The position numbers and the translations under genes were made by a program. 64,000 nucleotides of DNA, from contig CAWAPJ010000043.1 in assembly GCA_963783885.1 (NCBI GenBank), forward strand, positions 17,030 through 81,029, written 5' to 3'. The notes below the pieces were generated by a model. The model was given only the letters and a program-made list of their open reading frames with translations, searched no databases and was not told the DNA's origin. Below are positions 6,283 to 7,981 of the stretch, piece after piece. The stretch is from Waddliaceae bacterium. Its GTDB lineage: Bacteria; Chlamydiota; Chlamydiia; Chlamydiales; SLFE01. Within the stretch, counting starts at the first letter, position 1. Each line of letters begins with the position of its first letter.

Positions 6283-6333
6283 TAATATTGACACAATATT
6301 GTGTCATTATAATATTGACACAATATTGTGTCA
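6283..6333. promoter_or_regulatory. Two 18-bp palindromes TGACACAATATTGTGTCA (putative operators), 27-bp period
   Basis: Perfect palindromes at 6289-6306 and 6316-6333; the second overlaps a TTGACA -35 box. Confidence 0.8.
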
Positions 6334-6343
6334 GAATTATCTT
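6315..6343 (+). promoter_or_regulatory. sigma66/sigma70-type promoter of the hipA-like module
   Basis: TTGACA (6315-6320), 17-nt spacer, TATCTT (6338-6343), just before ATG 6352. Confidence 0.6.
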
Positions 6344-6351
6344 GGAATTAG

Positions 6352-7269
6352 ATGGCGAAAAAAATGGAGTTGATAATGACATTAATATGTTTGAAATGTG
6401 GTCTCAAAATTGAAAAAAGTAAGGAGCGGTATGGATTGCATGTGGAGTGTTTCTTAGATTGGTTTGGCCTAAAGGAAATTGAAGAATTTTCCGATATTTA
6501 TTCAAGATCATTGTCTCAAAGTCAAGGCAAACAGATCAATTCGAGTTTTTTCCATGGAAAATTTCGCAAATATTCTGCCCGTCTCGGAGGAGATAGTTAC
6601 ATTTTAAAAGTACAACAAAATGAATATCCTGAATTGCCTGCAACTGAGTTTATTAGCAATCAAATATTTGTAGCTTTAGGGATACAGGTTCCTCAACATT
6701 ATTTAGTTCGGTTCAATGAAGAAGAACTTTGTTTTGTTACAAAAAATTTTATTTCCAACTCAAATCCTGCAACTCTTGTTCATATGTATCATTTTGTCGA
6801 AAGCGGCGAAGAATATAATTGTGAAAATCTCGTTAGAATTATTGGTGAAAAGACAGGAAGAAGAATAGATCAAGAAAAATTTGCCTTTTTGACTTTAGTA
6901 GACAGCCTCATCGGAAATAATGATCGCCATGGACGAAATTTAGGATTTATTCAAAACTCCAAAAGGATGCGGTTGGCTCCTTTTTATGATAATCCTTCCG
7001 CACTGGGAGTCGAAGAGGCCACATTTTTAGGTGCGGATCTCCAACCTAGAGGAGCTATTTATACGAAGCGATCAAACGAACCGACTATAAATGATTATAT
7101 TCTTGAATGGCAGAGACTAGGTTTTGGAAAAGTTGTTGAAGAGCTTAAAGATAAATTAATACTTGAAAATATCACAGAAATTATCAACAAAAGCCCTTTG
7201 AGCAAGAAACGGAAAGAAGCATTTTTGAGGCTTATTACCTATAGGAGTCAACAATTATGCGCCAATTAA
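6352..7269 (+). CDS. HipA-family kinase (HipA C-terminal domain only, HipT-like toxin)
   Basis: N-terminal CxxC...HxxC; YILK, LGIQVP, IGNNDRHGRNLGF and RLAPFYD motifs. Confidence 0.85.
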   Translation: MAKKMELIMTLICLKCGLKIEKSKERYGLHVECFLDWFGLKEIEEFSDIYSRSLSQSQGKQINSSFFHGKFRKYSARLGGDSYILKVQQNEYPELPATEFISNQIFVALGIQVPQHYLVRFNEEELCFVTKNFISNSNPATLVHMYHFVESGEEYNCENLVRIIGEKTGRRIDQEKFAFLTLVDSLIGNNDRHGRNLGFIQNSKRMRLAPFYDNPSALGVEEATFLGADLQPRGAIYTKRSNEPTINDYILEWQRLGFGKVVEELKDKLILENITEIINKSPLSKKRKEAFLRLITYRSQQLCAN

Positions 7270-7892
7270 AAATTATTGGAGTGTTTGTATTTCTTGAAAA
7301 GCGCAAAACAAGAACGCTTGTCGGTGAACTATTGAAACAAAATGGAGTATTTGTTTTTACCTATGATGAAAATTATTTTAAAGCTGACAGTGTAATTCCA
7401 CTAGGCCCTGAGTTTCCATTAACACAAAGAAAGTTTGAGTCCAAAAAACTTTTTCCTTCGCTTGAAGATAGAATTCCTTCATCTCATAATCCTGCTTATA
7501 TTGAATATTGTCAATTTATGGGCATTGATCCTAAAGAGAAAGATGAGCTTGTTCTACTTAGTACAATTGGGAGAAAAGGTCCCTCATCTTTTATTTTTTA
7601 TCCAAATTATGAACATGAAATTACCTTTAATAATGTGATTGAATTCAGAAAATCTTTGAATCTAACAACTAGGGAATTTGCCCATGTTTTTGATCTATCT
7701 CAAGCAAGTCTGAATGCATTAGAAAGAAAGAGGATTTTGGGAAAAGAAATTTTAAAGAGGTTGGAAATATTTTACCACTTTCCATCTGTGGCAGCATCAT
7801 ATCTCATGATTAATGGCGGTTACCTGACTCATGATAAATTTAATGATGCAATAAGCGTCCTAAGAGATAAGGTTGAAGAAAAATACAACTAA
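7257..7892 (+). CDS. HipA N-terminal-domain (HipS-like) protein fused to a C-terminal XRE HTH; putative antitoxin/repressor
   Basis: VGEL...FVFTYDENY...IPLGPEFPL...LFPSLEDRIP (couple_hipA-like), then FRKSLNLTTREFAHVFDLSQASLNALER (HTH). Overlaps the kinase stop. Confidence 0.8.
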   Translation: MRQLKIIGVFVFLEKRKTRTLVGELLKQNGVFVFTYDENYFKADSVIPLGPEFPLTQRKFESKKLFPSLEDRIPSSHNPAYIEYCQFMGIDPKEKDELVLLSTIGRKGPSSFIFYPNYEHEITFNNVIEFRKSLNLTTREFAHVFDLSQASLNALERKRILGKEILKRLEIFYHFPSVAASYLMINGGYLTHDKFNDAISVLRDKVEEKYN

Positions 7893-7909
7893 GAACAGTA
7901 AGAAAGAAG

Positions 7910-7981
7910 TGACATAATATTGTGTCAGCTTAATATTGACACAATATTGTGTCAGCTTAATATTGACACAATATTGTGTCA
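7910..7981. repeat. Three further 18-bp palindromes, 27-bp period, downstream of the module
   Basis: 7910-7927 (one mismatch), 7937-7954 and 7964-7981; unit TAATATTGACACAATATTGTGTCAGCT. Confidence 0.9.

Follow-up and report, generated by a model that had tools for sequence, protein, structure and literature searches.

A kinase-first HipT-like and HipS-HTH gene cassette in a Waddliaceae bacterium, with arrays of one palindrome on both sides

We analysed a stretch of 64,000 nt (hereafter the window) from a Waddliaceae bacterium (GCA_963783885.1, contig CAWAPJ010000043.1, positions 17,030-81,029, forward strand), in which a small cassette at about 6275-8009 carries two hip genes, one for a HipA-type kinase and one for a putative antitoxin with a helix-turn-helix (HTH) domain, between two arrays of the same 18-bp palindrome. 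The assembly that contains the window, G000, is of the metagenome type and consists of 2,163,190 bases in 46 contigs, with a completeness of 88.9%. For comparison we used a sample of 400 genomes of the Chlamydiota (401 including G000).

The first gene of the cassette lies on the + strand at 6352..7269 as the longest open reading frame (ORF; 305 residues) and encodes a HipT-like serine/threonine kinase, the putative toxin. The translated ORF matched HipA_C with 71.1 bits, against a Pfam cut-off of 30.5 (E 1.3e-19), and its nearest solved relative was HipT of Legionella pneumophila (2.8e-13). It contains GNNDRHGRNLGF and APFYDN, which were aligned to GNEDMHLKNFS and PAYD of the L. pneumophila protein, and it fits the pattern of a D-x-H-x-x-N loop followed by a later Mg-binding Asp, represented by DRHGRN and YDN, which we take to be the catalytic motifs. 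Translation likely starts at the ATG at 6376 rather than at 6352, because a GGAG at 6366-6369 precedes the former by 6 nt and the position aligns with the starts of related proteins. The N-terminus that follows from this start (window 6376-6470) has a conserved CxxC-x13-HxxC arrangement (LICLKCG...YGLHVEC) that resembles a zinc-binding motif and was recognised by eye in the relatives too.

The second gene (7257..7892, + strand, 211 residues) begins within the first, its start and the kinase stop overlapping by 13 nt. Its product, the putative antitoxin and repressor, is a fusion of a HipS domain (residues ~1-118) and an Xre/Cro-type HTH (~124-174). The N-terminal part was matched by the Pfam family Couple_hipA (E 2.3e-9). 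An AlphaFold2 model built from 30 homologues had a mean predicted local distance difference test score (pLDDT) of 87.5; the N-terminal domain of the model superposed on the HipS of E. coli and Legionella HipBST (7ab3_E, 7vkb and 8ezr_A) with template modelling (TM) scores of 0.79-0.83, and the C-terminal domain on the HTH of the HigA2 antitoxin with TM scores of 0.55-0.75 (0.75 for 5j9i_C). A complex prediction with two copies of the HTH part (residues 118-211, 30-row alignment) scored 0.22, compared with a mark of 0.42, and a search of NCBIfam returned sub-threshold matches only. Based on the domain matches and the folds, the pair encodes, in this order, a HipT-like kinase and a HipS-HTH fusion. 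The HipS fold suggests that this domain would neutralise the kinase, in keeping with type II toxin-antitoxin logic.

The palindrome TGACACAATATTGTGTCA occurs exactly at 6289-6306 and 6316-6333 (sites U1 and U2), before the kinase gene, and at 7937-7954 and 7964-7981 (D2 and D3), after the HipS-HTH gene. One more site, D1 at 7910-7927, reads TGACATAATATTGTGTCA and differs from it by a single mismatch. The sites make up an upstream array at 6283..6333 and a downstream array at 7910..7981, and in both the start-to-start distance is 27 bp. In U1, U2, D2 and D3 the repeat unit is 24 nt long and consists of TAATAT plus the palindrome; D1 is without the TAATAT flank. The spacers differ between the arrays (CCC/TTA vs GCT/GCT). 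When D2-D3 (7931-7981) were compared with U1-U2 (6283-6333), 1648 bp away, 48 of the 51 nt were equal, and the 51-nt arms also pair as an inverted repeat with 86% complementarity. A sigma-70-like promoter match on the + strand, TTGACA-17-TATCTT (6315..6343), has its -35 box overlapped by U2, and a second one on the same strand, TTGACA(6288)-16-TAATAT, lies one unit further upstream; each agrees with the consensus at 10/12 positions, and both are consensus matches only.

The five palindrome sites were the only matches at up to three mismatches in the window, dinucleotide shuffles of which gave a mean of 0.04 matches, with none of 100 reaching five. Across the whole 2.16-Mb assembly they were again the only ones, at up to two mismatches, and a backward control gave none. 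The five-site feature is real and statistically clear. The original prediction, made from the letters of the sequence, had described two copies upstream over a TTGACA-17-TATCTT promoter, three copies downstream at 27-bp spacing and no copy elsewhere in the window, all of which was borne out with the one mismatch in D1 and with the promoter listed by a consensus scan. It had also named a common genome-wide repeat as a finding that would speak against a link with the module, and the palindrome is no such repeat.

The upstream array is shared by the family. The operator pattern that we counted was TGAC-N10-GTCA, with at most one mismatch in the arms and with sites 27 bp apart. Just before the kinase gene, 2-3 such sites at exactly this distance were present in 23 of the 27 loci for which upstream sequence was available, 13 of them with two sites and 10 with three; the count includes one near-identical couple, L014 and L015, that is not independent. 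The site nearest the gene covers part of a TTGACA -35 box in the loci examined base by base, so that at the level of sequence the palindromic operators overlap the promoter of their own module. The exact two-site pattern was found in 21 of the 401 genomes and a reversed control pattern in none. The inner bases of the operators vary among loci, and the arms, the length and the phasing are constant. Outside the closest relatives the operator itself is of another kind: TGAC-type operators go with HipS-HTH proteins that are 56-68% identical to the one described here, GATAT-type palindromes occupy the equivalent position in L034, L036 and L037 (46-56% identical), and TTACACCAT-type palindromes do so in L077 and L078 (41-42% identical), the last two classes having been assigned partly by eye. 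At a finer scale, SQNS in the predicted recognition helix went with TGACGCA half-sites in all seven loci that had this motif and a readable upstream array.

Since the operator class changes with the HTH subfamily, the predicted binding of the 18-bp palindrome by the HTH is well supported by comparison, and the upstream array appears, from these comparisons, to be the normal autoregulatory operator of the HipS-HTH family. HipB of E. coli K-12 binds tandem 18-bp palindromic operators upstream of hipBA. The present module resembles that system in its HTH antitoxin and in its tandem palindromic operators over the promoter, with several sites per promoter; it differs in the fusion of the HTH to HipS, in the strict 27-bp spacing and, at this locus, in a second array 3' of the operon. 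Autoregulation of hipBA by HipB is also stated in general terms by Gerdes et al. 2021 (PMC8262856).

The downstream array has no counterpart in the family. A search of 32 other loci, whose downstream flanks measured 85 to ~2400 nt, found two phased sites downstream of the module in none, and among the 26 other loci whose upstream sequence was complete, not even an 11-mer of the locus's own operator recurred downstream. G000 was the only one of the 21 array-bearing genomes with two separate arrays. The exact 18-mer was present in 22 stretches of metagenome contigs, of which only one, L068, is a hip locus, where two sites lie upstream and the 200 nt that follow downstream contain none; in viral contigs it was absent. 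The downstream array would therefore be a one-off of a recently inserted cassette and not part of the module's design, as far as the sequences compared can tell.

These comparisons separate the parts of the original prediction. Its split HipA module is upheld by HipA_C in the first ORF and by the Couple_hipA match, the HipS fold and the HTH in the second. Its proposal that the HTH of 7257-7892 binds the palindrome gains support from the alike phasing in 23 of 27 loci and from the operator class following the HTH subfamily. Its view that downstream sites are unexpected agrees with the failure to find them in the 32 other loci or in any of the 20 other genomes with arrays. What did not hold is two-sidedness as a property of the module. 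The survey for two-sided arrays that co-vary with the HTH, which it had suggested, cannot find them, because the layout is a one-off and no relative has it. Neither the direct repeat of 24-43 nt from the mreC 3' end, on both sides of the cassette, nor the empty site in a genome of the same genus (both described below) was part of that prediction.

The downstream array lies within a long imperfect hairpin (7889..8006), between the convergent HipS-HTH and mreC genes, that is U-rich at its 3' side on both strands. Folding of 7889-8006 gave -44.6 kcal/mol (z -6.2) for the + strand and -44.5 kcal/mol (z -4.8) for the - strand, and a scan listed terminator-like sites at 7937-7981 and 7910-7954. The hairpin is bidirectional-terminator-like. 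A hairpin scan 3' of the relatives' cassettes gave heterogeneous results, and a scan of 4800-8600 with Rfam returned only models of miRNA precursors, far under their gathering scores, that is, generic hairpins.

The surroundings of the cassette point to an insertion. To its right lies mreC (8044..8886, - strand; MreC, 4.4e-23), a core gene convergent with the cassette, and the contig carries core genes on either side of the locus. The guanine and cytosine content is ~30-37% from ~9 kb upstream on the contig to position 8000 (~33% near the junction) and ~50% in mreC. In G379, a genome of the same genus with a 99% identical MreC, the alignment (94.6%) begins at window position 8025 and runs to the right; on the other side of this junction G379 matches the window at 2067-2737 only (83%), and 176 unrelated bases take the place of 2738-8024. 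The cassette is thus absent at the same site in G379.

The insertion point is further marked by a duplication of 24-43 nt, a repeat of the 3' end of mreC, which flanks the cassette. The left direct repeat (DR-L, 6246..6274, + strand) comprises the last 9 nt of mreC including the stop and ~18-20 nt beyond, and is 14 nt shorter than the right direct repeat (DR-R, 8010..8052, + strand), which overlaps the stop and last codons of mreC. Between 6248-6274 and 8026-8052, 25 of 27 nt are equal (93%); across a gap of 14 nt the repeat reaches ACATTTCTGA on both sides, and its 24-nt core has just these two copies in the genome. There is in addition an inverted copy of the sequence beside DR-R at 6154..6173, in which 6154-6170 is the exact reverse complement of 8010-8026, this 17-mer having no other unmismatched copy in the genome, and in which 6157-6173 pairs with 6243-6259 (17 nt, 94%). 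Around the 26 other loci with complete upstream sequence, flanking direct or inverted repeats of at least 11 nt were only 11-14 nt long and mostly A/T-rich matches. Taken together, the sequence evidence presents the cassette as recently inserted at the 3' end of mreC.

Two marks of a transposon are lacking: the duplication is 24-43 nt long rather than a short target-site duplication, and the cassette encodes the two hip genes only, with no transposase. The 51-nt arms of the arrays might be taken for terminal inverted repeats, but they are internal palindromes and lie 8-28 nt inside the duplicated target. With regard to an integrase-mobilised island, a repeat of a gene's 3' end is present, that of mreC. 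No match to PF00589 was found on the contig (C43), the only matches in the assembly being on C13, C17 and C19 (serine recombinases were outside this search), and no tRNA was found within positions 1-12000 of the window.

Based on these observations, the module is a variant of the HipBST/HipA type, its upstream array an ordinary operator and its downstream array a one-off duplicate. The explanation that we favour, to which we would give a probability of roughly 0.55, is that a self-repressed, reverse-order split hipA toxin-antitoxin cassette was recently inserted at the 3' end of mreC (at ~6275-8009) and that the downstream array is an ectopic copy of its operator array, made on arrival and occupied by the repressor. 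An HTH dimer would bind each 18-bp palindrome, and the upstream pair, with its proximal site over the -35 box, would provide autoregulation. The downstream trio would then be a seemingly complete three-site copy of the array and the upstream pair a two-site remnant; the position of the first site in three-site relatives is taken up here by DR-L. The copy may have come from a piece of a circular or tandem form, since insertion of more than one unit of such a form would leave one full three-site copy and one truncated copy, or from a template switch at the palindromes. We infer an origin by duplication from the sequence of the arrays.

Whatever the origin of the copy, D2 and D3 do not differ from U1 and U2, so a protein that binds one pair is expected on the other, and the downstream array is probably repressor-occupied. 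The repressor-kinase complex would gain extra docking or titration sites there, and bound protein together with the hairpin might act as a barrier or a terminator where the transcripts of hip and mreC converge. Effects through a barrier, through titration or through looping are all plausible, and both DNA binding and any regulatory effect of the downstream array are put forward here as predictions.

Several points weigh against this explanation. The HTH_3 match in the HipS-HTH protein (20.9 bits, E 3.7e-4) is under the Pfam cut-off of 23. Shared descent confounds the co-variation of operator and HTH, which inside the TGAC class is partial, with the A150 and S150 groups mixed. To account for both the arrays and the mreC-end repeat, the duplication scenario has to invoke two or more events, or a single complex one, and the sequences after U2 and after D3 are not homologous to each other beyond the 27-bp units. 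Selection for function would explain the perfect identity of D2 and D3 to U1 and U2 equally well, and conserved operator pairs that stand alone in other genomes (see below) indicate that an array can be kept where there is no hip promoter, which favours a selected function over a passive by-product. Finally, the two-sided layout rests on a single assembly, and other assemblies give no independent confirmation. Ten DNA metagenome runs and no RNA runs were listed among the public runs containing part of the stretch; the contig pieces listed from four of the public runs and mapped to 5000-9000 (contigs 2-4x) left the arrays uncovered, and a joint of 5992 to 7571 occurred in one contig (side 21), too weak to read.

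A selected function of the two arrays might be long-range repression, in which repressor-kinase complexes on both arrays, 1.6 kb apart, loop the operon, so that autorepression becomes tighter and sharper or more of the kinase is held inactive in a DNA-bound assembly. There are precedents for each element: lambda CI loops DNA between OL and OR, two operator clusters that are paired at long range by one HTH repressor, and HipA-HipB on multiple operators has been proposed to hold the kinase inactive. As in lambda, one HTH repressor has its operators, two to three at a time, in two clusters 1.6-2.4 kb apart; the sites are identical, the distance is competent for looping, D2 and D3 are perfectly kept with their flank, and the strict 27-bp phasing throughout the family suggests cooperative assemblies of several dimers. 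Unlike in lambda, the second cluster controls no known promoter and the layout is not conserved in relatives. We consider selected looping unlikely, as a mechanism of this kind would be expected in relatives, yet two arrays were seen in 0 of 32 loci and 0 of 20 array-bearing genomes.

The operator pattern also occurred away from hip genes. Pairs of TGAC-N10-GTCA sites at the 27-bp distance, and without hip genes in the vicinity, were found in four genomes of genus g38 (L071 2935-2979; L094 3011-3055; L073 2902-2946; L072 3070-3114). In G169 and G404 the pair lies between a permease gene and an aconitase gene, in G355 between a DCC1-like gene and glyS, and in G077 after a HepT-like gene. The G169/G404 pair is inside an insertion of ~190-215 nt, at a site that is empty in four sister genomes, and its palindromes have been kept through symmetric substitutions, which looks like selection for a dimeric binder. 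A query with the HTH domain found no cognate TGAC-type HTH in G355, G169, G404 or G077. In L049 (1785-1829), TGACGCGATATTGCGTCA and TGACACAATATTGTGTCA are 27 bp apart on a contig with no hip gene and with ORFs that are phage-like by eye. The TGAC-type 27-bp grammar may serve other Xre-type repressors. A short metagenome contig, L060, has three copies of CTGACACAATATTGTGTCAGAA at 1-420, which belong to a larger repeat of ~106-160 nt that has no relation to hip.

Two further hip cassettes were flanked by duplications. In G402, another genome of the order (L092, G402:C1:9500-15000), a canonical hipBST-like cassette lies between direct repeats of 287 bp that are 96.9% identical (L092 1628-1914 and 3648-3934) and that match the 3' end of glyS in the G355 query. 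Its genes, for an HTH protein, HipS (2871-3182) and the kinase (1948-2874), are all on the - strand, and the primase-glyS interval in which it lies carries different cargo in G355, G181 and G247. By analogy, this flanked cassette may be a parallel to the mreC-end duplication described here. In L006 (488-6827), from a Parachlamydiales metagenome-assembled genome (MAG), a homologous hip cassette lies between two copies of a gene with a period of 4037 bp and stretches of 100% identity; the duplicated gene encodes a protein with tandem repeats of 108 nt (36 residues).

Some of these occurrences bear on an explanation in which the operon travels as a circle of ~1.65-1.8 kb that integrates and excises by recombination, with the crossover either between the arrays, as 51-nt direct repeats that would leave a solo array, or at the mreC 3'-end copy. 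In the circle, the mreC-end copy would lie between the downstream and upstream arrays, and the two-sided layout would be the linearised form of a single regulatory region. The 51-nt direct and inverted repeats that bracket the cassette, the duplicated target-gene end of 24-43 nt outside them and the empty site in G379 all fit this proposal; so do the 287-bp duplication in G402, which has the pattern of single-crossover integration of a circle, and the operator pairs without hip genes in three further genomes, one of them within the ~190-215-nt insertion. Opposed to it are the lack of a PF00589 recombinase on the contig (with serine recombinases outside the search), and the lack of any excision or circle junction in the four runs, although at a depth of 2-4x their contigs are uninformative. 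The solo pairs of G169 and G404 are orthologous and their palindromes kept by symmetric changes, as for operators and not scars, and one two-sided locus among ~33 speaks against a regular mechanism. We regard mobility of this kind as quite unlikely. A more specific form of it, which we hold to be very doubtful, is that the cassette is or was a minimal integrative circle of ~1.7-1.8 kb whose attachment site, the mreC 3'-end copy, lies inside its own operator region, so that integration splits five sites into two proximal and three distal ones. If this were true, HipS-HTH on both arms would be an architectural or synapsis factor besides a repressor, and such cassettes would move among the 3' ends of convergent housekeeping genes, sometimes leaving solo pairs co-opted by the host.

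It is highly improbable that the downstream array is an outward, repressor-controlled promoter (TTGACA-16-TAATAT) giving antisense transcription into the mreC 3' end or, from the other strand, into the HipS-HTH gene: there are matches towards mreC on the + strand at 7936-7963 (10/12) and 7909-7936 (9/12), and one on the - strand at 7942-7914 (9/12), but these are consensus matches only, from a scan that finds 15 sites where 7.6 are expected in shuffles, the third unit is without a -10 partner and nothing similar was seen in any relative. Equally hard to credit is an artefact in which the metagenome assembler misjoined or duplicated short repeats at a locus with one array; the assembly is of the metagenome type with 46 contigs and the listed contig pieces from four runs leave the arrays uncovered, but the differing spacers and D1 are unlike a collapsed or copied k-mer overlap, repeats of 24-51 nt are shorter than the usual final k-mers, and the contig runs on into core genes on both sides.

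Two observations concern the DNA to the left of the cassette. A run of low-GC ORFs at 449-4757 resembles a polymorphic-toxin and immunity array; it includes paralogous ORFs of ~155-221 residues without a Pfam family (449-916, 1430-2056, 2078-2713, 3359-4024 and 4113-4757) and an ORF at 1035-1412 with a weak match to Ntox37 (E 0.032, under the cut-off). At 5518-5669, contigs of other runs stack up to ~25x (2-4x elsewhere) and have loose ends at 5518 and 5623, which suggests a repeat or a sequence common to other organisms.

Homologues of HipS-HTH were present in 42 of the 400 sampled Chlamydiota genomes, all of them listed under the 'same order' as the genome of the window. A total of 397 proteins matched it at E<=1e-5, the closest being 69% identical, and no relative above 70% identity, from which its origin might be traced, was found among them. 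Three named homologue records are from MAGs of Parachlamydiales or Parachlamydiaceae, and the annotation of the named homologues goes no further than HipA-like or HipA N-terminal domain protein. The kinase gene is directly upstream and on the same strand in those relatives that have both genes inside the fetched stretch.

Among known systems, HipBST of E. coli O127 and L. pneumophila is alike in that the kinase is without N-subdomain-1, this subdomain being encoded separately as HipS, and in having an HTH component. It differs in that hipB, hipS and hipT are three genes in that order, whereas here there are two, with the kinase first and with HipS and the HTH in one polypeptide, and in the operators, here TGAC-N10-GTCA with a 27-bp period. 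Ten hip organisations were defined by Gerdes et al. 2021 (PMC8262856), in Table S1 of which the short kinases of the Planctomycetes-Verrucomicrobia-Chlamydiae (PVC) group are all of hipBST; in some PVC-group HipT proteins of that table, an N-terminal CxxC...H..C motif like that of the present kinase was recognised by eye. Two of the ten, hipJS and hipIN, share with our module the order of a kinase gene followed by a HipS-like putative antitoxin (PMC8262856). In hipJS the HipS has no HTH, the table stating that 'Phyre does not indicate HTH'; in hipIN it is fused, as here, to a C-terminal putative DNA-binding domain, HIRAN (PMC8262856). That domain is absent in hipJS, and in our module its place is taken by an Xre-type HTH. 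The kinase, placed without a kinase tree, looks HipT-like and not HipJ- or HipI-like.

Within the main text and Table S1 of Gerdes et al. 2021, the kinase -> HipS-HTH module is absent from the ten organisations: Table S1 has no match to a HipS-HTH or HTH-HipS fusion, and the words 'fused' and 'fusion' do not occur in the main text (PMC8262856). Among the papers listed by a keyword search of the full-text literature there was none on a HipT-like kinase with a HipS-HTH fusion, and a paper on Waddlia has HipA in its reference list only.

The two-sided locus could serve as a natural experiment on whether extra operators shift the set-point of a kinase toxin, and it bears on whether a repressor-bound hairpin can act as an insulator of convergent genes and on how toxin-antitoxin cassettes without an integrase insert at gene ends. 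Should the downstream array be no more than a by-product of insertion, it would be a modest curiosity. The regular grammar of 18-bp sites with a 27-bp period makes the specificity and the cooperative assembly of the repressor easy to test. For the family as a whole, a HipT-like kinase followed by a HipS-HipB-like fusion would be an eleventh organisation among the catalogued HipA-type systems, and one that is seemingly common in environmental Chlamydiota.

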